Shown here piece after piece: positions 1,998 to 44,288 of a DNA stretch of 64,000 bases. The notes below the pieces were generated by a model. It saw only the letters and a list, made by a program, of their open reading frames with translations, searched no databases and had not been told where the DNA came from. The stretch covers positions 749-64,748 of the forward strand of contig DASRFZ010000189.1 in the NCBI GenBank assembly GCA_035651275.1, in the 5' to 3' direction. The stretch is from Mycobacterium sp. (lineage in GTDB: Bacteria > Actinomycetota > Actinomycetes > Mycobacteriales > Mycobacteriaceae). Position 1 is the stretch's first letter; each line of letters opens with the position of its first letter. The position numbers and the translations under genes were made by a program.

Positions 1998-2610
1998 AGG
2001 CCATGCACCCAATTGCTCAGCAGCGTCGCTCCCGCGTCCGCGCTCTTCTCGGGGTGAAATTGCGTAGCCGCCAAGGCGCCATCCTCGACAGCCGCAAGAA
2101 ACGAAACGTGATGGGTGGCCCACGTCAGCATGGCGTCCTGGCGGCCCTCCCACCGCTGCGCGGCGTAGGAGTGCACGAAATAGAACCGCGTTTCGGCGTC
2201 GAGACCGGCGAAAAGCCTGCTGTCGGTTCCGGCATCGACCGTATTCCACCCCATGTGCGGGATCACCGGCGCATCCAATCGCGTGACGGCACCGGGCCAT
2301 TGGCCACACCCGACGCTCTCGACACCGAACTCCACGCCGCGGTCGAACAAGATCTGCATTCCCACGCACACGCCCAGAACAGGAGCCTGGGCGTCGAGGC
2401 GCTCGGCGATGATCTTGTCGCCACCGACCGCGCGCAGGCCCGTCATACATGCCTCGAACGCCCCGACACCGGGAACCACCAGCCCGTCGGCGGCGGCGGC
2501 CGCGGCGGGGTCCGCCGTGACCGTCACGTCCGCGCCCACCCGCTCCAGCGCGCGCTGCGCCGACCGGAGGTTACCCGACCCGTAGTCAAGAACCACCACG
2601 GATTTTGCTG

Positions 2611-2614
<4 letters not shown>
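1994..2614 (-). CDS. hisH: Imidazole glycerol phosphate synthase glutaminase subunit
   Basis: [30 protein letters not shown]. Confidence 0.97.
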
Positions 2615-5674
<3,060 letters not shown>

Positions 5675-5713
5675 TACCTCGATTCTCCCCGATCGAGGCA
5701 TCCGAATGAAAAT

Positions 5714-5764
5714 CACTTTTGGCGCGGTGAGGCGCGGTGAGCGCTTCTGAGCGCGCCGAATGTG
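5714..5764. repeat. REP-like imperfect intergenic hairpin containing a tandem 10-mer (ggcgcggtga x2)
   Basis: cacttttggcgcg (5714-5726) pairs with cgcgccgaatgtg (5752-5764), 11/13 matches; lies between the ADH stop and the hisD start. Confidence 0.55.
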
Positions 5765-5770
5765 GTCGTG

Positions 5771-6808
5771 CTAGGCGCGCACGAACACCGTCTTGCCCGT
5801 CATCGCCGGCCACACCGTCGGCGCGTCGTCCCACTCCGCGACGCGTTCGACGACCGATGCGAGGTCACAGCCGCCAGCAATCAATTCGAGCACCTCCGGA
5901 ATCACCGTGCGCGCGTTCACCCGCCCGGTGACGAACCGGACTCCGTGGGTGTACATGGCCAGCAGCGGCATCTCGACACTGCCCTGGAAATAGACGCCGG
6001 TGTCCGTGCACACGCCGTCCGGCCAGGTCAAGCGCAGGGTGGCCGACAGCAGGCTTGGGTCTCTGGCGGTATGCACAGTGACCGGGTACGGATCCCACGA
6101 CCGATCCGGTTTGGCCAGGTCGTGGACGTTCGCGCCCAGCTTCTCGGCAGCTGCGAGCCGATGCTCGTCGGTGTCGACGTAGTCGACCTGGGCGCCGATC
6201 GCCGCTGCGAACGCTGCGGCATACACGCCGATCGAAAGTCCTCCGACGACGAGGACGCGGCGATCGCTCGCGTCAAGCGCGTCCAGCTCGGAGCGGTACG
6301 GGCCAACCGTGCGCCAGCCGTCGGGGACGTTGTCCGACAGCGACGCGATCGCGACCGGGTCGACCGTGCCAGGAACGGAAATCAGCATCGCATCGGCATA
6401 CGGCACCAGCACCACGTCGGCCATGAACCCGCCACCGTCGTGCCCCGATATCGGGGCCATTCCGTACGTCGCCATCAACGGAAGCGAGCTGCACGACCCC
6501 GTGAGGCCGCGACGGCATTCGGGGCAGCTGCCGCAGTTGATCTGGAACGGTACGACCACCCGATCGCCGACGCGCACGCTCGTCACGTCATCGCCGACGG
6601 CGATCACCTCGGCGATTCCCTCGTGACCTACCGCGTGGCCGGGCGGAACCGGCAACACGCCTTGGCTGACTCCCACGTCCAAGTCACAGCATGCGACCGC
6701 GATGGGACGCACCAGTGCCTGCTCGGGGGACGTAATCGCCGGTTCGGGGGCGTCGCGCCACGCGTAGACGTCCGCGTCTTCGAACAGCAGTTGCCGCATC
6801 GTGACCAT
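5771..6808 (-). CDS. Zinc-dependent alcohol dehydrogenase (MDR family)
   Basis: GHE motif, structural Zn CGSCPECRRGLTGSC; atypical nucleotide-binding GGLSIG; start at ATG 6808 or 6799. Confidence 0.85.
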   Translation of the reverse strand: MVTMRQLLFEDADVYAWRDAPEPAITSPEQALVRPIAVACCDLDVGVSQGVLPVPPGHAVGHEGIAEVIAVGDDVTSVRVGDRVVVPFQINCGSCPECRRGLTGSCSSLPLMATYGMAPISGHDGGGFMADVVLVPYADAMLISVPGTVDPVAIASLSDNVPDGWRTVGPYRSELDALDASDRRVLVVGGLSIGVYAAAFAAAIGAQVDYVDTDEHRLAAAEKLGANVHDLAKPDRSWDPYPVTVHTARDPSLLSATLRLTWPDGVCTDTGVYFQGSVEMPLLAMYTHGVRFVTGRVNARTVIPEVLELIAGGCDLASVVERVAEWDDAPTVWPAMTGKTVFVRA

Positions 6809-34315: not shown

Positions 34316-37300
34316 TCAGCCGCCGAGACAGCTCGGACCGAGCAGTGCCTTCAAGTCCCCCATCAACGCCGAGGACGGCGTCACCCGCAACGACTGGTCG
34401 AGTTCGAGGGTGGTCACCCGGTCCCCGCTAACCAGCCGCAAATGCACCTGAGCCGTACCCGGATGCCGCGCCAGCACCTGTTTGAGCGCAGTGACCTTGT
34501 CTGGCGTGCACTGCCGGGTTGGCATGCTCACGGCCACCGGCCGGTTTGCAGCTGCATGGGAAAAGTCCGGCACGACAAGGTCGTTCGCGATCAAGCACAC
34601 CCTATCGTCCTGGATGCGCACCTTGCCGGTCACCAATACCACGGCGTCGTCGACAATCTCGGAGCTCTTCGTGGCGTAGATGTGCGGGAAGAACATCACC
34701 TCGATGCCACCCGTCAGGTCCTCGAGTTGCGCTGAGGCCCACGGCAATCCGTTCTTGTTGACCCGCCGGTTCACCGACGCCAGGATTCCGCCCACCCGCA
34801 CCATCGCATCGTTGGGCACGTCGCCGTCCAGAATCGCCGGGATCTGCGTGTCGACCTGCCCGGCCAGCAGATGCGCCACACCGTCGAGCGGATGCCCAGA
34901 CACGTACAGCCCCAGCATCTCTCGCTCCAGCGCGAGCTTGTGCTTGTCGTCCCACTCGTCGTCGGGCACCTTGATGGTGAACACCGCGTCTGTGCCCCCG
35001 TCGGCAGCGTCGGCGCCGAACAGGTCGAACTGGCCCATCGCCTCGGCCTTCTTGGTGCCGAGCACCGAGTCGACCGCGTCGGTGTGCACCAAGAAGAGGC
35101 CCTTGCGCGGATGCCCGAGCGAGTCGAATGCACCGGCCTTGATCAGCGACTCGGTTACCCTCCTGTTGCATGCCGCGATGTCGATCTTGTTGAGGTAGTC
35201 GGAGAAGTCGGTGAATTTGCCTCTGTCGCTTCGCGTTCCGATGATCGAACCGACGACGTTGGCGCCGACGTTGCGCACCGCGCCGAGTCCGTAACGGATG
35301 TCGGTGCCGACGGACGCGAAGTTCAGGCCGGACTCGTTGACGTCGGGCGGCAGCACCGTGATGCCCAGCTTGCGGCAGTCGGCCAGGTAGACGGCGGCCT
35401 TGTCCTTGTCGTCCCCGACCGACGTCAGCAGGCCGGCCATGTACTCGGCCGGATAGTTCGCCTTCAAGTACGCGGTCCAGTACGACACCATCGCATAGCC
35501 GGCTGCATGCGACTTGTTGAACGCATAGTCGGCGAACGGCAACACCGTGTTCCACAGCGCCTTGATCGCCGCGGCGGAAAACCCGTTGGCGCGCATGCCT
35601 TCTGCGAAGCCCTCATACTCCTTGTCGAGCACGGCGCGCTTCTTCTTGCCCATGGCCTTGCGCAAGATGTCGGCTCGTGCCAGCGAGTAGCCGGCGACCT
35701 TCTGCGCGATGCGCATGATCTGTTCCTGGTAGACGATCAAGCCGTACGTCTCGGCCAGGATCTCCTCGAGAGGTTCGGCCAGTTCGGGGTGAATGGGTTT
35801 GACGGCTTGGCGGCCGTTCTTGCGGTCGGCGTATTCGTTGTGGGCGTTCTGCCCCATCGGGCCGGGCCGGTATAGCGCGATGACGGCGATGATGTCCTCG
35901 AACCCGGTGGGCTGCATACGGCGCAGCAGGTCACGCATCGGACCGCCGTCGAGCTGGAAGACCCCCAGTGTCTCCCCGCGGCCCAACAGGTCATAGGTGG
36001 CTTTGTCGTCGAGCGGCAGTGACTCGAGGTCGACGTCAATTCCCCTGTTGGCCTTGATGTTGTCGATCGCGTCGCCGATGATCGTCAGGTTGCGAAGCCC
36101 GAGGAAGTCCATTTTCAGCAGGCCGATGCTTTCGCACCGCTCGTAGTCCCAACCGGTGATCACCGCGCCGTCCTGCGGGCGCTTCCACAGCGGGATCACG
36201 TCGACGAGCGGCTCGGAGCTCATGATCACCGCACACGCGTGCACGCCGGAGTTGCGGATCAGCCCTTCCAGCCCCAGCGCCGTGTCGTAGATCGTGCGCA
36301 CTTCGGGGTCGGTGTCGATGAGGCCGCGGACCTCGGCGGCCTCCTTGTAGCGCTCGTGGCTGGGGTCGGTGATGCCGGACAGCGGGATGTCCTTGGCCAT
36401 GATCGGCGGCGGCAACGCCTTGGTGATCCGGTCGGCGATCGAAAAGCCCGGCTGGCCGAAGTGGATACGCGCCGAATCCTTCAGCGCTGCTTTGGTTTTG
36501 ATGGTACCGAAGGTGATGACCTGCGCGACCCGATCGGTGCCGTACTTCTCCGTCGCGTAGCGCAGCATCTCGCCGCGGCGGCGGTCGTCGAAGTCGATGT
36601 CGATGTCGGGCATCGACGTGCGCTCCGGGTTCAGGAAGCGCTCGAACAGCAGGCCGTGCGGGATCGGGTCGATGTCGGTGATGCCGAGCGCGTACGCGAC
36701 GAGTGAGCCCGCCGCCGAGCCGCGGCCCGGGCCCACCCGGATCGCGACTGAGCGGGCGTAGCTGACGAGGTCGGCGACGATCAGGAAGTACGACGGAAAA
36801 CCCTTGTCGCAGATCACTTGTATCTCGTAGGCGGCGCGGTCGGCGTACCCGTCGGGCAGCCCGTCGGGGAACCGCCGCCGCAGCCCGGCGTCGACCTCAT
36901 GGCGCAGCCACGACGCCTCGTCGTGGCCGTCGGGAACGCCGAAGACCGGCATCCGGTTACGCGGCTGCCAGACGCCCGCATAGGATTGCACGCGCTCCGC
37001 GATCAGCAGCGTGGCGTCACACGCGCCGGGGACCTGTGCGTCCCACAGCTGACGCATGTCGGCGGCGGACTTCAGGTAGTAGCCGTCCCCCTCGAACTTG
37101 AACCGGTTGGGGTCCGACAGCGTCTTGCCGGTCTGCACGCACAGCAGCGCCTCGTGGTTGTGCGCGGCGTCGCGGGTGACGTAGTGACAGTCGTTGGTGG
37201 CCAACGGCGTAATGGCCAGGGTGCGGCCGATCTCGAGCAGCCCGTCGCGCACCCGGCGCTCGATGTCGAGCCCGTGGTCCATCAGCTCGAGGAAGTAGTT

Positions 37301-37852
37301 CTCGGCGCCGAAGATCTCCCGCCACTTGCCGGCGGCCTCCAACGCCTCGCGGAACTGCCCTAGCCGAAGCCGCACCTGCACTTCGCCGGACGGGCATCCG
37401 GTGGTGGCGATGATGCCGCCGGCGTGTTCGGCGATCAGTTCGGCATCCATGCGCGCCCATTTGCCCAGCTGGCCTTCGAACGAGGCCAGCGACGACAGCT
37501 TGAACAGGTTGCGCAGGCCTTCGGCGTTCTCGGCGACCATCGTCAGATGCGTGTAGGAGCCGCTGCCGGAGACGTCGTCGTCCTTCTGGCTGGGGTCGCC
37601 CCAGAACACCCGCTTGGTGTCGAACCGCGAGCCGGGCGCGACGTAAGCCTCGATCCCGATGATCGGCTTGATGCCCGCCGCGGTGGCCTCGGTGTAGAAC
37701 TCGCTGGCGCCGAACATGTTTCCGTGATCGGTCATGCCGATGGCGGGCATGTCCAGCCGCTGCGCCTCGGCCAGCATCGGCGCGATCTTCGCGGCACCGT
37801 CCAGCATCGAGTATTCGGTGTGGTTGTGCAGGTGCACGAACGAGCGGTTCAT
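34316..37852 (-). CDS. dnaE1: DNA polymerase III alpha subunit DnaE1 (no intein seen)
   Basis: [50 protein letters not shown] fold; 1178 aa. Confidence 0.98.
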
Positions 37853-37914: not shown

Positions 37915-39285
37915 TTACGCCGGTTTGCGCAGCAGGTTGGCCATGTCGGTAGCCTGCTGCAGGGTCAGATTGCCGGAAATCTCCAGGCCCGGCGACGTGA
38001 TGGCCTGGGTGATCTTGGGCGCGAAGACGACGACGCCGTCGCGCAGAAACGCGAGCTGGGTGCCCACGTGCTGGGCGGTGTAGGCGCCGAATGTGGTGGC
38101 CGACGCCTGGTCCATGGTCAGGCGCACGACGTGGAAGTCTGACGTCGGCGCCTTGACGGTGTCGACGTGCGTGAGCGTCACCTCCATCACCTGCGGCCCA
38201 AGCACGTAGGCGGCTGTGCGCATGAAATCACACCGGGTGATCGGGTCCGTCGGCGCCGCGACCGGCAGCGGGCCCTCCCCGGGACATTGGTCGGGAGAGC
38301 GGATGTCGGTCACCGGTCGCACTTGGAGCGGCCGAATGTTCTCCGTCGGCACCAGGGGGTGGCTGGTCACCGTCGCTTGTCCGGGAATCTGTTTCGACAG
38401 GCCGCCGCCGAAAAGCTGGGTCCACAGGCTGGCGACGATCGCGACGCCGATGCCGAGGCAGGCCACCAGCGCGACGAGTGCAACTGCCCTGGCCAACAAC
38501 TTGTTGCGTCGCCGGCGGTCATGTCGCGGCGGCGCCACGGGTTCGGGGGGTGGGAGCGGCTGCGTGGTACGCGCGGCCGGCCTGATCGGCTCGGGTCGCG
38601 CGCCGGCCGGGGTGACGATCGCTCGGCGCAATGCCGCGGCGAAGTCCGAACACCGCGGAAACCTCACGCCCGGCTGTTTGGCCAGTTCGTTCGCCAGGCC
38701 CGGATTCGCATGCCTGCCCAGTGTCTTGCCCGTCAGCAGCTGGTAAGCGGTGGCGGCTAGCGAGTGCAGGGCCGCATGTTCGTCATCGACGCTTTGCCCG
38801 ATTCCCAAGTCGGCCAACAGAACTCGCCGAGCGTTGCCGTCTGCACCGGTGAGGATGATGTCGGCCGGCTTCACACCGCGATGGTTGAGTCCCCGATCAT
38901 GGGCGTAGTCGAGCGCGCTTGCGACGGCGTCGACAATCGACGTCACACGATCGACTGGCACGCCTTGCGGATGTGCGTCGGCGAGCAGCCGCTGGGCATC
39001 GATGCCCTCGACGTAGTCCGACGAGATCCACAGTCGGCCGTCGAATTCACCATGCTCGCGCACCGCGACGATGTTCGGGTGCGACAGCGTGACGGCGATA
39101 GCCGCATCGCGTTGAAACCGTTGCCGGAAGTCGTCGTCGGCAGAGACTTCACCCGGCAGAATTTTCAGCGCAACCCCACCTGCCAATCCCGGCTTGTGCG
39201 CCAGATAGACCTCGCCGGTCTCCCCCGAACCCAGCCGGGAATCGACGACGAACCCCGCGAAGGCCGTACCGCTCGCCAACGGCAT
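37915..39285 (-). CDS. PknI-like Ser/Thr pseudokinase - TM - SecD/SecF P1-head-like domain
   Basis: GSGETG, VALK, HRG(V)KPAD in place of HRDxKPxN, DLG, no activation segment or APE; one TM; C-terminal QLAFLRDGVVVFAPKI...ISGNLT..QA..MA. Confidence 0.75.
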   Translation of the reverse strand: MPLASGTAFAGFVVDSRLGSGETGEVYLAHKPGLAGGVALKILPGEVSADDDFRQRFQRDAAIAVTLSHPNIVAVREHGEFDGRLWISSDYVEGIDAQRLLADAHPQGVPVDRVTSIVDAVASALDYAHDRGLNHRGVKPADIILTGADGNARRVLLADLGIGQSVDDEHAALHSLAATAYQLLTGKTLGRHANPGLANELAKQPGVRFPRCSDFAAALRRAIVTPAGARPEPIRPAARTTQPLPPPEPVAPPRHDRRRRNKLLARAVALVALVACLGIGVAIVASLWTQLFGGGLSKQIPGQATVTSHPLVPTENIRPLQVRPVTDIRSPDQCPGEGPLPVAAPTDPITRCDFMRTAAYVLGPQVMEVTLTHVDTVKAPTSDFHVVRLTMDQASATTFGAYTAQHVGTQLAFLRDGVVVFAPKITQAITSPGLEISGNLTLQQATDMANLLRKPA

Positions 39286-39314
39286 GGGCCGATGCTACAG
39301 GTGCCGCCGCCCGG

Positions 39315-40541
39315 TCATGTTTGCTCCGCAAGGCACGAGCCGAGGTAGTCGCGTACGCCCGCGTCACGCGTCAACTCGATGGCGCGCGAGTAGGCCTGCG
39401 CGGCAGCGATTTCCGAGCCAGCTCGGGCAAGCAGATGCGCCCTGGTTGCCCAGTACGGTTGGAAAGCGCCGACAGCTGCGCCGTCAATCGCGTCGAGCGC
39501 CGCGAGTCCGGCTTGTGGGCCGTCGATCTCGGCGTCGACGGCAGCCAACGCCACCGCTGCGCCCAGCGACGGCGCGAGTCCGACCAGTCCGCGATGCAGC
39601 GTGCGCAGCGCATGCCAGTCCGTTCGCCCGCTGCGGGCACGATCGCAGTGCGCGGACTGTATTGCCGCCTCGAGTTGATACCGGCCAGGACGGCCCCAGC
39701 CATGGGCACGCGCAAGCAGCGCCTCGCCCCGGTCGATCAACGCGCGATCCCACAACGAGGTGTCCTGCTCGTCGAGCGGCACGAACCTCCCGTCGGCAGT
39801 GCGTCGGGCAGCTCTGCGTGCCTCCGACAAGCACAGCAGCGCCGCGAGGCCGAGCACTTCGGGTTCGTCGGGCAGCAATTCGACCAGCACGAGCGCGAGA
39901 TGCATTGCCTCACCGGACAATGACTCGGCGGGCGCGCCGCGGCCCGGCCAGTCGATGGCGTATGCGCCGTATACGGCTTCCAACACGGCAGGGAGCCGCT
40001 CGGCCAAATCAGCACGCTCTGGCAGGACAAACGGGATGCGGGCGACGCGGATTCGCCGCTTAGCCCGCACCAGCCGCTGCGCCATCGTTGACGACGGCAC
40101 CGCGAACGCCTGCGCAATCGAGTCGGCGTCGGCGCCGAGGACCGTCTGCAGCATCAGCGGTGTGCGAACGTTTTCGGCGATCGCGGGATGGGCGCACACC
40201 AGCATCAGTTCCAGCCGTCGGTCCAGGACGGCGTCCGCGCCGACGTCGATACTCTCTGTCGCACGGTCGGTTTCGAGCAGCGGCTCGGTCATCCGGTAGC
40301 CGTGCGACTTCCAGACGTCGCGGAGGCGGTTACGTGCCACGGTCAAGATCCAGCTTTCGGGGTTGTCCGGGATCCCGTCGTCGGGCCACCGCGTCAGCGC
40401 GCGTTCGAGCGCGTCGGCGATCGCGTCTTCGGCGGCGGGTATGTCACCGGTCGGTGCCGCGAGCAACGCAAGCAGCCGGCCGTACGAGTCGCGGGTGATG
40501 CCCGCGACCCGTGCCGGCACGTCCTCTACGGCGTGTACCAC
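39315..40541 (-). CDS. ECF sigma factor with C-terminal TPR extension (ECF42 type)
   Basis: sigma2 (AEDAIADA, WILTVARNR), sigma4 (TMAQRLVRAK), DUF6596-like VLEAVYG, TPR tail (YQLEAAIQ, YWATRAHLL). Confidence 0.88.
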   Translation of the reverse strand: MVHAVEDVPARVAGITRDSYGRLLALLAAPTGDIPAAEDAIADALERALTRWPDDGIPDNPESWILTVARNRLRDVWKSHGYRMTEPLLETDRATESIDVGADAVLDRRLELMLVCAHPAIAENVRTPLMLQTVLGADADSIAQAFAVPSSTMAQRLVRAKRRIRVARIPFVLPERADLAERLPAVLEAVYGAYAIDWPGRGAPAESLSGEAMHLALVLVELLPDEPEVLGLAALLCLSEARRAARRTADGRFVPLDEQDTSLWDRALIDRGEALLARAHGWGRPGRYQLEAAIQSAHCDRARSGRTDWHALRTLHRGLVGLAPSLGAAVALAAVDAEIDGPQAGLAALDAIDGAAVGAFQPYWATRAHLLARAGSEIAAAQAYSRAIELTRDAGVRDYLGSCLAEQT

Positions 40542-40906
40542 TCGCCGCGCTCGTGGCTGTATGTTCGTGCCACCGGCCGGATCTCGATCGAACCCCAGGC
40601 GGCCGCCGGGTTGCGTTTGGCCCAGTCGAGCGCGGCGTCGAGGTCGGGAACGTCGATTACGAAGACCCCGCCCAGCCGCTCCTTCGTGTCGGCGAACGGG
40701 CCGTCCTGGATTTCCGGTGAACCGTTGCGGGCGGTGACAGTGGTGCTGGCAGCGCTCGCTTCGAGCACCTGCGTGGTGACGAGCACGCCGGCCTTGTCAA
40801 GATCGCGTGCGTAGGCCTGGAACGCGGCCATGGCGGGCGCCATGTCCTCTTCGGTCAGGCCGATCTCGCTGGCCTCTTGGTAGTGCATGAGCAGGCAGTA
40901 CCGCAT
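40526..40906 (-). CDS. YciI/DGPF family protein
   Basis: QDGPFADTKERLGG, AWGSIEIRP; GGAGGA RBS before ATG 40906. Confidence 0.9.
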   Translation of the reverse strand: MRYCLLMHYQEASEIGLTEEDMAPAMAAFQAYARDLDKAGVLVTTQVLEASAASTTVTARNGSPEIQDGPFADTKERLGGVFVIDVPDLDAALDWAKRNPAAAWGSIEIRPVARTYSHERGEWYTP

Positions 40907-40943
40907 GTCGCTGTCCTCCGTGGTGTCGTTGTCGTCGAGCCTG

Positions 40944-41858
40944 TCACCGTGATGACGATTCAGGGACGACCAGATCGACATCTTCGTCCGGAATTTCAGG
41001 CCGGCGCTTCAACGCGTCCATCGTGAGCAGCGCGAGCGCCAACCAGATCAGCGCGAAACCCGCCCACCGAGCGGCGGGCATCGCCTCGTGATCGATCAAC
41101 ACACCCCACAACATCTGCAGACCGGGATTCAGGTACTGCAACAGCCCCAGCGTGACCAGCGGCAGCCGCTGGGCCGCCGCGGCAAACATCAGCAACGGGA
41201 TGGCGGTCACCGGACCCGACAACACCATCAGCGCGGTGTGGCCCTCACCGTGCCCGACGAAGTGCGCATGACCACTCACCTGAAGCGCGATCAGATAGCC
41301 CGCGGCGAGCGGCAGCGCCAGCAGCGATTCGACGGCGACGCTCACCCGCGGATCCGCGGTCACGATCTTTTTGACCAGCCCGTACAACCCGAACGACGTC
41401 GCCAGCGCCAACGCGATCACCGGAACCCCGCCGACCTGCATGGTGAGCAACGCAACCGCCGCGACCGCGATTACGAGCGCGACGAGCTGCGGCCGCCGGA
41501 TGCGCTCACGCAGAATCACCACTCCCAGCGCAACCGACACCAGCGGGTTGATGAAATAACCGAGCGCGGCGTCGACAACATGGCCGTTCGTAACAGCGTA
41601 AATGTATGTGCCCCAATTGATCCCGATCAGCGCAGAGGCGCATGCGAGCAACAGCCAGGTCTGCCTGCTGAGCCGTCGTAGCTCACTGAGCTTGCGCCCG
41701 ACGAGCAGCACGACCACCAAGAACACCGCAGTCCACACGTACCGGTGCGCCAGTACCTCTATCGCCCCGGCAGGCAACAGCAACGGGAAGAAACCGGGGA
41801 ACAATCCCCACCAAACGTAGGCGCCGACGCCGAAGAGCAGCCCGGACCGCCGCGTCAT
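40944..41858 (-). CDS. rarD: EamA/RarD family transporter
   Basis: [26 protein letters not shown]; ATGA overlap with rluD. Confidence 0.9.
40952..40980 (-). promoter_or_regulatory. Putative ECF42-dependent promoter TGTCGAT-N16-CGTC inside the 3' end of rarD
   Basis: Minus strand TGTCGAT ctggtcgtccctgaat CGTCAT, upstream of the DGPF gene; matches the ECF42 consensus as recalled. Confidence 0.7.
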
Positions 41859-42778
41859 TGGCCACGCAACACGTCGAGAGCGTGCTGCAAGTCGTCCGGG
41901 TACGGGGCGGTGATCTCGACCCGGCGACCGTCGGCGGGGTGCGTGAACGCCAGTGACCGCGCATGCAGCCATTGCCGTTGCAACCCAAGCTTTTTCGCAA
42001 GGGTCGGATCGGCACCGTAGACCATGTCGCCGACACACGGATGGTGCACAGCGGCGAAGTGCACGCGAATCTGGTGCGTGCGGCCGGTTTCCAGATGGAC
42101 GTCGAGCAAGCTCGCAGCGCGAAACGCCTCCACGGTGTCGTAGTGGGTGATGCTGTGCCTACCGTCTTCGGTGACCGCGAACTTCCACTCGGGGCCCCGG
42201 TGCCGCCCGATCGGCGCGTCGATCGTGCCGCTGGACGGGTCCGGATGTCCTTGCACCAGCGCGTGATAACGCTTGTCTACGGTGCGCTGCTTGAATGCGC
42301 GCTTCAACACGGTGTAGGCACGCTCCGACAGCGCGACAACCATCACTCCCGAGGTGCCGACGTCGAGGCGGTGCACGATGCCCTGACGCTCGTGCACCCC
42401 CGACGTCGAGATCCGGAAACCCGCGGCGGCCAACCCGCCGAGCACCGTCGGGCCGGTCCAACCGACAGACGCGTGCGCGGCAACGGCCGCGGGCTTGTCG
42501 ACGGCGACGATGTCGTCGTCGGCGTAAAGAACGCTCATGCCGGCCACTTCTTCGACTCGGTTGTCAGGCGGGGCGGGCGGCGCGGGCAGCCGCACATCGA
42601 GCCACGCCCCGGCGGTCAGTTTGTCCGACTTGCCCGCGCGGGCGCCATCGATTTCTACGGCGCCTTCCTCGGCCAGAGCGGCCGCCGCTGTCCGCGACAA
42701 CCCAAGCAGCCGGGCCAGGCCGGCGTCGACGCGCATTCCGGCCAGCCCGTCGGGAACAGGCATCGACCGCTCAGTCAT
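41855..42778 (-). CDS. rluD: RluA/RluD family pseudouridine synthase
   Basis: S4 domain (RVDAGLA), [26 protein letters not shown]. Confidence 0.93.
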
Positions 42779-43340
42779 GCGGATGGTCGTCGGCCGACCT
42801 GCGCCTGCCGGGCGTGTCGAAGTCGTAACCGAACAACGACAACGCGACCAGCAGCACCGCGCCACACACCACCGACGCGTCGGCGACGTTGAACACCGGC
42901 CACCAGCCGACCGACAGGAAGTCCACTACCTGCCCGCGCAGCGGTCCCGGCGACCGGAAGAACCGATCGACCAGATTGCCCAGCGCCCCGCCCAGGATCA
43001 TGCCGAGGCCGACAGCCCACCACGGCGACACCAGCCGGCGGCCCATCCAGACGATGCCGGCGACCACAGCAGTCGCGATCAATGTGAGCACCCAGGTGGA
43101 CCCGATCGTCATCGAGAACGCCGCGCCGGAGTTGCGCACCAGCGTCCACGTCACCGTGTCGCCGATGATCGGCACAGGCTGACCGGGGGTGAGCAGCCGG
43201 ACGGCGATGACCTTGGTGACGATGTCGACGGCCAGAACCACGGCGGCGACCACGATCAGCATCAGGATCCGCCGGCGCGCGGGCGGCCGGGTGACCTCGT
43301 CGGTGTCGGTTGCCGGCCGCGTGGTGGAGTCGTCGCTCAC
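42771..43340 (-). CDS. lspA: Lipoprotein signal peptidase II
   Basis: [31 protein letters not shown]. Confidence 0.95.
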
Positions 43341-43394
43341 TTCTCCATCATCCCTCTCCGCCTTTTTCCGACGGGTTCCAGGCATGATTCCGCC

Positions 43395-44288
43395 ATGAGC
43401 CGCGTCGTCGTCATCACCACCGGCGGAACCATCGCGTCGGTTGCCGACGCGGGCGGGGTGCTGCGGCCTGCGCGCACCGGAGCCGAGCTGCTCTCCGGCG
43501 TCGATCGCGACGTGGAGGTCGTCGACCTGATGCGCAAGGACAGCTCCGAGCTGACGCTTGCCGACTGGGACGCCATCTCCGCGGCGATCTCCGCCGCAGT
43601 CGACGGCGGCGCATCCGGCGTCGTCGTCAGCCACGGCACCGACACGATGGAGGAGACCGCTCTATGGCTCGAGCTCACCTATGACGGCGACGTGCCGGTG
43701 ATCCTGACCGGCGCCGCCAGAAGCGCGGACGTACCGGACTCCGACGGTCCGGCGAATCTGCGCCACGCAGTCACGCGGGCCGCGTCCGCGGACGCCCGCG
43801 GGCGCGGCGTGGTGATCTGCTTCGGCGGGAAGGCGCTGGCCCCATTGGGCACGCAGAAGGTCGCGGGCGGCTTCGACGGGCCGTCGGCAACCGACGGTAA
43901 GGACCGGCCGTTCCTCGGATGCGCGTCGGCGGTCACCGCACCGCGCGTTGACGTCGTCGCGTGCTACCTGGGGGCGGACAGCGTCGCGCTCGACGCGTGC
44001 GTGGCCGCCGGAGCGCGGGGCGTGGTGCTGGAGGGTCTCGGGTCGGGCAACGCGGGGCCGCCGGTGATCGACGCGGTCCGCCGCCACTGCGCCGACGGCG
44101 TGACCGTCGCGGTTTCGACTCGCGTCTCGTTTGGCGGTGTCGGTTCTCGCTATGGGCCTGGTCGGGAATTGGTGGACGCCGGCGCGGTCGCGGTGCCGCG
44201 ACTCGGCCCACCCCAGGCGCGGGTGCTCCTCATGGCGGCGTTGGCCACGGGGTCACCGGTCCGCGAGGTCGTCAGTCGCTGGGGCTGA
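43395..44288 (+). CDS. ansA: L-asparaginase
   Basis: [25 protein letters not shown]. Confidence 0.93.

Follow-up and report, generated by a model that had tools for sequence, protein, structure and literature searches.

PknF and PknI of M. tuberculosis share one plan, in which a kinase domain is followed by a proline-rich linker, a single transmembrane (TM) helix and an ectodomain. To our knowledge, only a few ectodomain types (PASTA, beta-propeller, DsbG-like and PknH-type) have been recognised among bacterial receptor Ser/Thr kinases, and for most of these receptors we know of no identified ligand. Membrane proteins with a non-catalytic kinase fold are also known. In T7SSb, the single-pass pseudokinase EssB/YukC acts as a scaffold for a secretion machine. 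ActPs3, the pseudokinase domain of MviN, has an activation-loop deletion, while ActPs1 has its G helix deleted (PMC12599244; bioRxiv 10.1101/2025.01.12.632604). The main text of both sources contains neither SecD nor "P1 head".

Here we describe a gene in a 64-kb stretch of DNA, which as a whole is called the window. The gene comes from an uncultured soil Mycobacterium. Its 456-residue product is a single-pass membrane protein, N-in/C-out, with the plan of PknF and PknI: a PknF/PknI-like kinase domain, a Pro-rich linker, one TM helix and a C-terminal P1-head-like domain.

37915–39285, minus strand: complete coding sequence, 456 codons plus a TAA stop (open reading frame list; the MPLASGT start agrees with the PknF and PknI N-termini; GC3 0.80)
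38620–39285, minus strand: cytoplasmic pseudokinase domain, residues 1–222 (Pfam, alignments to 7naa, PknI and canonical relatives, AlphaFold2 model, omega)
38500–38619, minus strand: Pro-rich juxtamembrane linker, residues 223–262, ending in RHDRRRRN (alignments; low pLDDT in the AlphaFold2 model)
38410–38499, minus strand: single TM helix, about residues 263–292 (hydrophobic stretch LLARAVALVALVACLGIGVAIVASLWTQLF; AlphaFold2 helix 257–292; kept in small homologues)
37918–38409, minus strand: extracytoplasmic domain, residues 293–456 (pLDDT, Foldseek, family profile, omega)

This protein shares a membrane location and a non-catalytic kinase fold with ActPs3, ActPs1 and EssB/YukC. All three lack the beta3 lysine, however, whereas the domain described here arose recently from the PknF/I/J clade and has kept it. 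By description, belonging to ActPs3 or ActPs1 would involve family-specific constraints together with loss of the VAIK Lys, the HRD Asp and the DFG Asp; our protein retains the VAIK Lys and an Asp at the DFG position. ActPs3 and ActPs1 each have one kind of deletion; the window protein has both kinds. Its ectodomain is of a different type from those of MviN/ActPs and EssB/YukC, and no MviN or EssB chain was among its best 60 PDB sequence matches.

Lesions, fold and selection of the kinase-like domain

Pfam Pkinase matches residues 13–178 (profile positions 2–159 of 263, E 5.5e-19), and the closest solved structures are the M. tuberculosis kinase domains of PknF (7naa, E 4e-58) and PknI (5m06 and 5xka, E ~1e-50). 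All of these matches, and that to SecDF_P1_head discussed below, are far beyond chance. PknF and PknI are the best match of the cytoplasmic part, with ~43% identity, a TMt of ~0.8 and a common MPLA.G..FAG N-terminus. The N-lobe is intact, including the Gly loop GSGETG (G19–G24), and three positions locate the state of the active site.

39163–39165, minus strand: beta3 lysine, Lys41 of VALK (present in each of the three orthologues)
38875–38877, minus strand: GGT codon for Gly137 in H135-R136-G137, replacing the catalytic Asp of HRD (sequence; specific to the window lineage)
38803–38811, minus strand: D159-L-G in place of DFG (alignments), with the activation segment and APE (~28 residues) deleted immediately after it

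Elsewhere, the alphaC Glu has become Asp60, the catalytic Asn has become Asp142 (KPAD), and the alphaF Asp has become Ala172. Relative to canonical kinases, the ~28 residues that are gone comprise the activation segment, the P+1 loop and APE; a second deletion of ~28 residues lies around alphaG in the C-lobe. The PknI-like N-lobe and every lesion listed in the preliminary description are thus present, both in the sequence and in alignments to PknF, PknI and canonical relatives. In PknF and PknI themselves, HRD, DFG and the catalytic Asn are present, as are the activation segment and APE. A competent Hanks-type kinase needs the Gly loop and the beta3 Lys, both of which are present, but also the alphaC Glu, the HRD Asp, the catalytic-loop Asn, a DFG...APE segment with its P+1 loop and the alphaF Asp, none of which is found here. 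The domain cannot be a canonical kinase. Contigs from three independent metagenome runs show no variant of the GGT codon of Gly137, which excludes a sequencing error. A joint in run X1, recorded as "skips 156", was considered as a deletion allele and rejected: it stems from an unrelated contig of 3.4 kb, matches over 62 nt with nine mismatches and most likely represents a paralogous kinase. Despite the lesions listed in this section, the kinase fold is predicted to be intact, as the AlphaFold2 model (pLDDT 84.6) superposes on the PknI kinase domain with a TMt of 0.78–0.82.

Only two orthologues of the fusion were found, with 86% (P0001) and 72% (P0002) identity. A scan of genome contigs for more returned only three loci, all kinase-less, and a scan of metagenome contigs with the kinase part gave a best match of only 54% over residues 1–170. 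All three proteins have lost the activation segment and the catalytic Asn and carry Asp at the alphaC position. P0001 has HRD, and P0002 has HPD together with GFG; because these motifs differ in both orthologues, HRG is specific to the window lineage. The preliminary description had singled out HRG and the deletion for comparison among orthologues: the deletion is conserved in three of three, while HRG is not. The Gly loop and the DFG Asp are likewise gone from P0002. In P0001 and the window protein, by contrast, G-x-G-x-x-G, the beta3 Lys and an Asp at the DFG position remain, and P0001 retains the HRD Asp too. In the window protein and P0001, the second C-lobe deletion removes 14 residues more than it does in P0002.

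Among the three orthologues, omega (dN/dS) is 0.26–0.29 for the kinase part (bootstrap 95% CI ≤0.46) and 0.09–0.11 for the ectodomain, a difference corresponding to a roughly threefold weaker constraint on the kinase part (bootstrap P<0.01). Synonymous divergence reaches a dS of ~0.9, every indel is in frame, the kinase part has no stop or frameshift in any of the three lineages, and purifying selection is equally strong in the N-lobe and the C-lobe. We therefore agree with the earlier proposal that the domain has been maintained and has not freshly decayed. A bilobal fold (at the TMt given above) under purifying selection accords with a pseudokinase, which would in addition show neither phosphotransfer nor nucleotide binding. 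An omega below 1 in the kinase part could, however, also reflect selection against misfolding beside a needed ectodomain.

The ectodomain and its free-standing relatives

Beyond the TM helix, a disordered stalk leads into a SecD-P1-like fold that begins at about residue 316 (IRPLQVRPV...) and is modelled with a pLDDT above 90 from residue ~320.

37924–38142, minus strand: Pfam SecDF_P1_head (PF22599) match, residues 382–454 (E 3.4e-13, 49.9 bits against a gathering cut-off of 27)
38230–38286, minus strand: Cys334, Cys352 and the intervening loop (both Cys invariant across family alignments)

Positions 138–223 of TIGR01129 (secD) also match. When the AlphaFold2 model was compared with the PDB by Foldseek, all matches with E≤0.01 were SecDF/SecD chains, from Thermus thermophilus (3aqo, 3aqp, 5yhf) and Deinococcus (5xan, 5xap), and the next best match had an E above 0.5. 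The SecDF matches have a probability of 1.0, E-values of 3e-6 to 4e-4, 145–171 aligned columns and ~23% identity, and a profile of the ectodomain family matches 3aqo in a PDB sequence search (E 2e-5). The likeness to the SecD P1 head noticed from the sequence is therefore borne out by both profile and fold. A PknI-type sensor domain was considered as the identity of the ectodomain and rejected: the PDB profile search contained no PknI sensor chain at E≤10, and the fold search returned SecDF only. The ectodomains of PknF and PknI are unrelated to this one, with no PknI sensor chain among the sequence and fold matches listed.

The protein is not a SecD or SecF subunit, having one TM helix and scoring 55.5 bits against a TIGR01129 cut-off of 244.4. 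SecDF is a transporter with 12 TM helices, while here the domain sits on a single helix and has an extra loop between two cysteines, whose invariance suggests an ectodomain disulfide. Since the SecDF membrane domain is absent, a proton-driven pulling cycle is impossible.

The TM helix and ectodomain also exist as a stand-alone Mycobacteriaceae family of ~200 residues, named "SecDF P1 head subdomain-containing protein" by NCBI, of which we found 11 close and more than 120 further homologues. In these proteins (e.g. WP_243072281.1 of Candidatus Mycolicibacterium alkanivorans), this part is 42–70% identical to that of the window protein and contains the same two Cys and the IRPLxVRPV and LEISG motifs. 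They have ~10 cytoplasmic residues, whereas the window protein has a 260-residue pseudokinase and linker in front. The genomic position is shared as well, upstream of dnaE1.

34316–37852, minus strand: dnaE1 (DNA polymerase III alpha), the syntenic anchor of the P1-head gene family, 62 nt downstream of the pseudokinase gene

The dnaE1 gene lies directly downstream of the P1-head homologue in loci L001/L008, L004/L009, L005, L010 and L012. In alignments, the RHDRRRRN stop-transfer motif at the end of the linker corresponds to the N-terminus M-I/M-D/E-RRRRN of the free-standing proteins, and the fusion junction coincides exactly with their start. Within the linker, T-Q-P is kept in the window protein, P0001 and P0002. 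The window protein thus has what defines the small family (RRRRN followed by the TM helix and ectodomain, two conserved Cys and a gene upstream of dnaE1) and is an atypical member in its N-terminal pseudokinase. The conserved unit is the TM helix and ectodomain, and the kinase part is a later, dispensable add-on in the window lineage. One kinase-less homologue, L013, is identical to the window gene over 16 nt around the start codon, and from this sequence the kinase part seems to have been lost again in its lineage.

Two other candidates were set aside. The 55-residue N-terminal extension of P0004 resembles the window linker, but not significantly at the protein level, which leaves only the 16-nt identity around the start codon. 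P0003, which looked like a natural sigma/P1-head fusion, is a frameshift artefact on an error-prone contig where dnaE1 is split into five open reading frames; the sigma factor there lies in another frame and ends ...YLAACRAKLPA*, like that of L010.

Kinase/P1-head fusions and the sigma-factor neighbourhood

Proteins with both Pkinase and SecDF_P1_head, canonical as well as degenerate, occur in other Mycobacterium metagenome-assembled genomes (MAGs) and in cultured Gordonia. The canonical fusions are P0139/P0401 and the Gordonia cluster of WP_247863619.1; the degenerate ones are P0143/P0149/P0137, which have lost the beta3 Lys and carry HGD, with P0149 independently lacking the activation segment. 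They share the domain order and ectodomain family of the window protein, but they lie at other loci and on other branches of the ectodomain tree, and the closest kinase domains to that of the window protein are found elsewhere. Kinase-bearing members occupy at least five places in the weakly resolved neighbour-joining (NJ) tree of the ectodomain, and the kinase domains of different fusions have different nearest neighbours among ordinary kinases. For example, the kinase domain of P0139 shares 68% identity with a kinase whose C-terminus is unrelated, while its ectodomain is 74% identical to a 194-residue protein. The fusion of a kinase to a P1 head has probably arisen recurrently. Given the weak resolution of the NJ trees, a single old fused ancestor with many independent kinase losses is an alternative. 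The preliminary description knew of no account of this architecture. Among the papers listed in our literature search, likewise, none described it, and a single, unrelated paper combined pseudokinase, Mycobacterium and SecD; the architecture is, however, not unique to this genome.

Upstream, the pseudokinase gene follows a sigma-factor gene and a small open reading frame.

39315–40541, minus strand: ECF-type sigma factor with a long C-terminal extension (Pfam Sigma70_r2, r4_2 and DUF6596), ending 29 nt upstream of the pseudokinase gene
40526–40981, minus strand: YCII-related open reading frame overlapping the sigma start (the Pfam YCII match begins at residue 26)
40954–40980, minus strand: TGTCGA-N17-CGTC, candidate ECF-type promoter of a YCII, sigma and possibly pseudokinase unit (homologous position in L005, L010 and L004/L009)

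The true YCII start is probably Met26, near 40906. TGTCGA-N17-CGTC has two matches in the window against 0.59 expected, so that its conserved position, not the count, carries the evidence. Because the pseudokinase gene lies 29 nt behind the YCII/ECF-sigma pair and its conserved promoter-like motif, it is probably cotranscribed with the upstream sigma gene and expressed with that sigma. The same sigma adjoins kinase-less P1-head homologues in L005, L010 and L013. As small homologues occur without it in several genomes, its link to the P1-head gene may be incidental. Between 37700 and 42200, a scan for sigma-70 promoters found none and a terminator scan gave chance-level results. Rfam and tRNA scans of the window returned nothing. 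Among the sequencing runs searched, the locus was present only in DNA from soil and mine metagenomes, and in no RNA run.

Interpretation and significance

We favour, with a probability of about 60%, the view that this is a bitopic protein with two histories, a member of the P1-head family to which a pseudokinase has been fused that degenerated and is still selected. In the window lineage, a small P1-head protein would have acquired a PknF/PknI/PknJ-type kinase domain, fused in frame to its short cytoplasmic N-terminus. Subsequent losses would have removed the activation segment including APE, the region of alphaG and a number of catalytic residues from that kinase domain. What remains would be a non-catalytic pseudokinase that still folds and is selected more weakly than the ectodomain. 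The ectodomain, of ~140 residues, reproduces the SecD P1 head fold as a free-standing unit and is under strong purifying selection. By analogy with the SecDF P1 head, based on fold and ~23% identity only, it may bind exported polypeptides in an extended or unfolded state, or some other ligand in the envelope, on the outer side of the membrane. On the cytoplasmic side, the pseudokinase may link the ectodomain to partner kinases or other proteins, serving as a surface for docking or dimerisation or contributing a phospho-acceptor linker. The role in monitoring envelope protein folding or export that the preliminary description proposed is a hypothesis.

The kinase-like domain could alternatively be a passenger. 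The protein would then work through its TM helix and ectodomain as its ~200-residue relatives do, while a functionless domain erodes in a setting where in-frame loss is rare and misfolding harmful. Such a relic would fit the threefold difference in constraint, the stepwise trimming of the C-lobe (one deletion common to all three orthologues, the other longer in two of them), catalytic residues that drift differently in each orthologue, the mostly kinase-less relatives, and L013, which seems to have dropped the domain and kept the start region. It fits poorly with clear purifying selection across both lobes at this depth of divergence, with open frames in three lineages, and with conserved core helices, a conserved N-terminal motif and a confident model; the second, older pseudokinase/P1-head lineage formed by P0143/P0149/P0137 also suggests that the combination is useful. 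We regard the passenger explanation as unlikely, if still credible. An atypical enzyme or nucleotide switch that uses Lys41, the Gly loop and Asp159 to bind ATP and works as an ATPase, a switch or an unconventional kinase would account for the retention of these elements in the window protein and P0001, and for the HRD Asp of the latter. The catalytic Asp and Asn, the alphaC Glu, the activation segment, the P+1 loop and APE are nevertheless missing from the window protein. Moreover, P0002 has lost parts of the nucleotide site while being equally conserved elsewhere, so selection is not on that site, and an active role of this kind appears highly improbable.

A further possibility is that the protein regulates the adjacent ECF sigma factor, with an envelope signal received by the P1 head and relayed through the C-terminal extension of the sigma factor or through the pseudokinase, as a non-canonical anti-sigma or co-sigma partner. 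Some ECF groups are under the control of Ser/Thr kinases. At five loci (window, L005, L006, L010 and L013) the P1-head gene has a sigma gene immediately upstream, whose stop overlaps the P1-head start (ATGA) in L005 and L010, as is typical of coupled sigma/anti-sigma pairs, and the conserved promoter-like motif precedes the unit. Yet the small homologues, with so few cytoplasmic residues, have no anti-sigma domain; in the window protein Pfam detects none either, the sole NCBIfam match being NF052375 at 12 bits (E 0.13, cut-off 100). No sigma gene accompanies the P1-head gene in L001/L008, L012 and L004/L009, and sigma factors with such an extension are thought to be self-regulated. Direct regulation of the sigma factor is, in our estimate, very unlikely. 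A broader idea, which we consider doubtful, is that the P1-head ectodomain is a sensor of unfolded or stalled exports and that its recurrent fusions to active and dead Hanks kinase domains and the ECF sigma linkage mark an unrecognised secretion-stress module of Mycobacteriales. Within it, the window protein would serve as a modulator or scaffold with no catalytic role. Such a module would be similar in logic to the luminal sensors IRE1 and PERK of eukaryotes.

If we return to the favoured reading of a P1-head protein with a fused and still selected pseudokinase, the locus offers a young, datable example of a bacterial kinase domain turning into a pseudokinase. The activation segment and the G-helix region were lost in frame and step by step, paralleling the deletions of older actinobacterial pseudokinase families. 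For receptor kinases, the SecD-P1-like ectodomain suggests a concrete class of ligand, extended exported polypeptides. The family also presents natural experiments side by side: the ectodomain alone, with an active kinase, and with a pseudokinase.

Domain layout and predicted fold of the window protein

The window gene and its protein have the following layout:

37915..39285, minus strand: 456 codons, uninterrupted
Residues 13-178: Pfam Pkinase, spanning profile positions 2-159 of 263 only (E 5.5e-19)
About residues 263-292: single TM helix
Residues 382-454: Pfam SecDF_P1_head (E 3.4e-13, 49.9 bits; gathering score 27)

The preliminary description of an intact 456-aa frame with a kinase-like N-terminal half and a SecDF P1-head-like C-terminal half is borne out by the open frame and both Pfam domains. 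NCBIfam kinase models fit only the first ~170 residues and secD/SecDF models the last ~85, all scoring far under equivalog cut-offs. The nearest solved relatives of the kinase part are the kinase domains of M. tuberculosis PknF (7naa, E 4e-58) and of PknI (5m06-5m09, 5xka; E ~1e-50). A Pro-rich linker with RHDRRRRN at its end, the TM helix and a 165-residue ectodomain follow, and by the positive-inside charge the kinase-like part is cytoplasmic.

The GSGETG Gly loop and VALK, with Lys41, are retained. The lesions named at the outset are all visible in the sequence and alignments: the alphaC Glu position is Asp60, HRD reads H135-R136-G137 (Gly137 codon GGT at 38875-38877), the catalytic Asn position is Asp142 (KPAD), DFG reads D159-L-G, the alphaF Asp is Ala172, and the activation segment, P+1 loop and APE, ~28 residues in all, are gone. 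The alphaG region is missing as well, through another deletion of ~28 residues. The Gly137 codon is identical in near-identical contigs of three independent metagenome runs and is therefore not a sequencing error. One 3.4-kb contig of run X1 shows a joint skipping 156 nt at window 38827-38984; as it matches over only 62 nt with 9 mismatches, it is most likely a cross-match from a paralogous kinase and not a deletion allele.

An AlphaFold2 model of the whole protein, made from a 56-sequence alignment, has a mean pLDDT of 84.6, with the N-lobe, alphaE, alphaF, alphaI and ectodomain mostly >90, and its kinase part fits the PknI kinase domain with a TM-score of ~0.8 (target-normalised). In a separate model of the TM helix and ectodomain, ectodomain pLDDT is >90, and the related PDB matches are SecDF/SecD P1 structures only (3aqo, 5xap, 5yhf, 5xan and 3aqp; probability 1.0, E 3e-6 to 4e-4, 145-171 aligned columns), the next unrelated match having E >0.5. 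The family sequence profile likewise matches the P1 domain of T. thermophilus SecDF (E 2e-5). Because of these matches, the C-terminal domain is predicted to be a SecD-P1-like fold, as first proposed. A PknI-type sensor was rejected as its identity, since fold matches were confined to SecDF/SecD P1 and the family profile matched no PknI sensor chain in the PDB sequence search.

Orthologues and selection

Among 5.8 billion proteins searched, the only full-length orthologues were P0001 (456 aa, 86%) and P0002 (469 aa, 72%), and a metagenome scan with the kinase part as query found no further close relatives. All three proteins lack the activation segment and APE; in each, the alphaC residue is Asp and the catalytic Asn is gone. 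P0001 keeps HRD; P0002 has HPD, GFG replacing DFG, a degenerate Gly loop and an alphaG deletion ~14 residues shorter. Judged from these three sequences, HRG is lineage-specific and the predicted non-catalytic state common to all. Thus, of the two features whose conservation the preliminary description had raised, the deletion is shared (3/3) and HRG is not.

We estimated dN/dS (Nei-Gojobori) from a codon alignment of the window gene with its homologues at loci L006 and L007, among which dS reaches ~0.9. Values were 0.26-0.29 for the kinase part (upper bound of the bootstrap 95% CI 0.46; N-lobe and C-lobe about equal) and 0.09-0.11 for the ectodomain, the former being higher in >99% of bootstrap pairs, and all indels are in frame. 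The kinase-part ratio and the in-frame indels indicate that the kinase-like domain is translated and under purifying selection, ~3x weaker than on the ectodomain. This supports the earlier reading of a maintained pseudokinase over fresh decay. Selection for foldability alone would fit these data as well.

A free-standing ectodomain family and its kinase fusions

Searching with only the TM helix and ectodomain returned ~200-aa proteins that begin M-I/M-D/E-RRRRN and continue with a TM helix and an ectodomain of the same kind (50-70% identity), and a profile search added >120 further members of ~195 aa in Mycobacterium and Mycolicibacterium. One is named 'SecDF P1 head subdomain-containing protein' at NCBI (Ca. 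Mycolicibacterium alkanivorans, WP_243072281.1). Two cysteines (window Cys334 and Cys352), IRPLxVRPV and LEISG vary little or not at all across the family. The fusion junction in the window protein (...PPRHDRRRRN) is the exact start of the small proteins (MIDRRRRD/N). In every locus with enough flank, the family gene lies directly upstream of dnaE1, in a conserved neighbourhood (ileS-dinX-ansA-lspA-rluD-EamA...dnaE1) that the window shares. The conserved unit is the ectodomain.

Window 16619-49504 carries treX/Y/Z-like alpha-amylase genes, ilvA, zwf, fadD, dnaE1, ... rluD, lspA, ansA, dinX and ileS, an order we take to match the M. tuberculosis Rv1536-Rv1564 region; relative to that layout, the YCII / sigma / P1-head unit is an insertion. 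The asparaginase ORF (42537-44288, plus strand) has a ~288-codon N-terminal extension overlapping the lspA-like gene on the opposite strand (42771-43634, minus). High GC content accounts for this extension as a long-ORF artefact; ansA probably starts near 43400.

An exhaustive ectodomain profile search of 1.84 billion representatives yielded further long proteins, in which Pfam finds both Pkinase and SecDF_P1_head:

P0139, P0141 (P0401) and the Gordonia cluster of P0201 (WP_247863619.1): canonical kinase motifs all present
P0144: DVG
P0143: HGD, GFG, Lys to Tyr
P0137: Lys to Thr
P0149: Lys to Glu, HGD, independent deletion of the activation segment

In a neighbour-joining (NJ) tree of ectodomains, kinase-bearing members fall at at least five separate places among the small proteins. 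The nearest neighbours of their kinase domains differ, being ordinary PknF/H/J-like kinases and not one another. Chimerism is most evident in P0139: a kinase whose C-terminus is unrelated shares 68% identity with its kinase domain, and a protein of 194 aa shares 74% with its ectodomain. These three observations favour repeated fusion of kinase domains onto this small membrane protein, with catalysis then lost in several lineages; tree building was by simple NJ, and the distribution may instead reflect many losses of the kinase part from an old fused ancestor. Because P0143 and the P0149 cluster have a second conserved locus in common, they form a second, older pseudokinase/P1-head lineage. At that locus, other than the window's, degenerate genes (L014 5001-6671, P0143; L015 5001-6380, P0404 of the P0149 cluster) follow COesterase, FA_hydroxylase, DAO oxidoreductase and two ~230-aa proteins without a Pfam match. 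At L016 2527-9167, the canonical P0401 clusters with two more receptor kinases, one with an LppX_LprAFG domain, and an rve-family integrase, a setting that would favour domain shuffling.

Gene neighbourhood and possible role

An ECF-type sigma gene with a long C-terminal extension (Sigma70_r2, r4_2, DUF6596) ends 29 nt before the window gene, preceded by a YCII-related gene, a pairing we take to be typical of the ECF42 group:

40526-40981, minus strand: YCII-related ORF, overlapping the sigma gene start by 16 nt; its listed start lies inside TGTCGA-N17-CGTC
40954-40980, minus strand: TGTCGA-N17-CGTC, just upstream of the probable true YCII start
L005 67-93, L010 4318-4344, L004 5676-5702, L009 5712-5738: the same motif at the homologous position

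Since Pfam matches YCII only from residue 26 on, translation probably begins at the ATG near 40906. We regard the motif as a candidate ECF-type promoter under autoregulation. Within the window its count (2 vs 0.59 expected) is not significant; the evidence is its position, kept in four independent loci including L004 and L009, which have a YCII remnant only and no sigma gene. A scan found no terminator-like site between the sigma and pseudokinase genes, which are likely cotranscribed.

Kinase-less P1-head genes likewise follow the YCII / sigma pair in L010, L005 and L013. The stop of the sigma gene overlaps the small-gene start (ATGA) in L010 and, read in the correct frame, in L005. An apparent sigma/P1-head fusion, P0003 (L005 973-2346), was rejected as a frameshift artefact; the same contig has its dnaE1 (2409-5982) split into five ORFs. 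A short spacer with TAGCATCGGC[C/G]CATG stands before a longer N-terminal region in the window, L006, L007 and L013. Across the start codons of P0004 and the window gene, L013 525-540 and window 39282-39297 share 16 identical nt (TAGCATCGGCCCATGC), and P0004 has only a 55-residue extension in place of the kinase domain, which suggests that its lineage secondarily lost the kinase part of a once-fused gene.

In the window protein, then, the cytoplasmic kinase-like domain is predicted to be non-catalytic yet folded and is under selection, a single TM helix follows, and the SecD-P1-like ectodomain is strongly constrained and also free-standing. The P1 head of SecDF is said, in work by Tsukazaki and colleagues in 2011, to contact translocating unfolded polypeptide. 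By analogy, the ectodomain may bind extended exported polypeptides or another envelope ligand; because it lacks the SecDF membrane domain it could not pull, and would bind, hold or sense only. The pseudokinase may serve for dimerisation or docking, or may offer a linker as phospho-acceptor. In such a role it would be comparable to two scaffolds of envelope and secretion machines, the MviN pseudokinase and EssB/YukC (PMC12599244).

Other readings carry less weight. That the kinase-like domain is a passenger relic is unlikely on our estimate: its weaker constraint speaks for this, its purifying selection against. Regulation of the adjacent sigma factor by the window protein we regard as improbable. 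That the domain is an atypical ATP-binding enzyme, given the retained Gly loop and Lys41 beside the lost catalytic residues, seems very improbable.

The window kinase part arose recently from the PknF/I/J clade. Its activation-loop deletion resembles that of ActPs3 and its G-helix deletion that of ActPs1, both convergently; unlike these, it keeps the beta3 Lys. SecD and 'P1 head' are absent from the main text of two recent surveys of bacterial kinases and pseudokinases, and literature searches found no description of the kinase/P1-head architecture, in line with the initial impression that it was undescribed; proteins with Pkinase and SecDF_P1_head are nonetheless already in sequence databases, where the architecture has gone unremarked. 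We class the window protein as a receptor-type pseudokinase of bacteria whose ectodomain is of a new type. The wider family is most useful, as the ectodomain can be compared alone, with an active kinase and with a pseudokinase, a three-way comparison that brings the question of the ligand within reach of experiments in cultured relatives.
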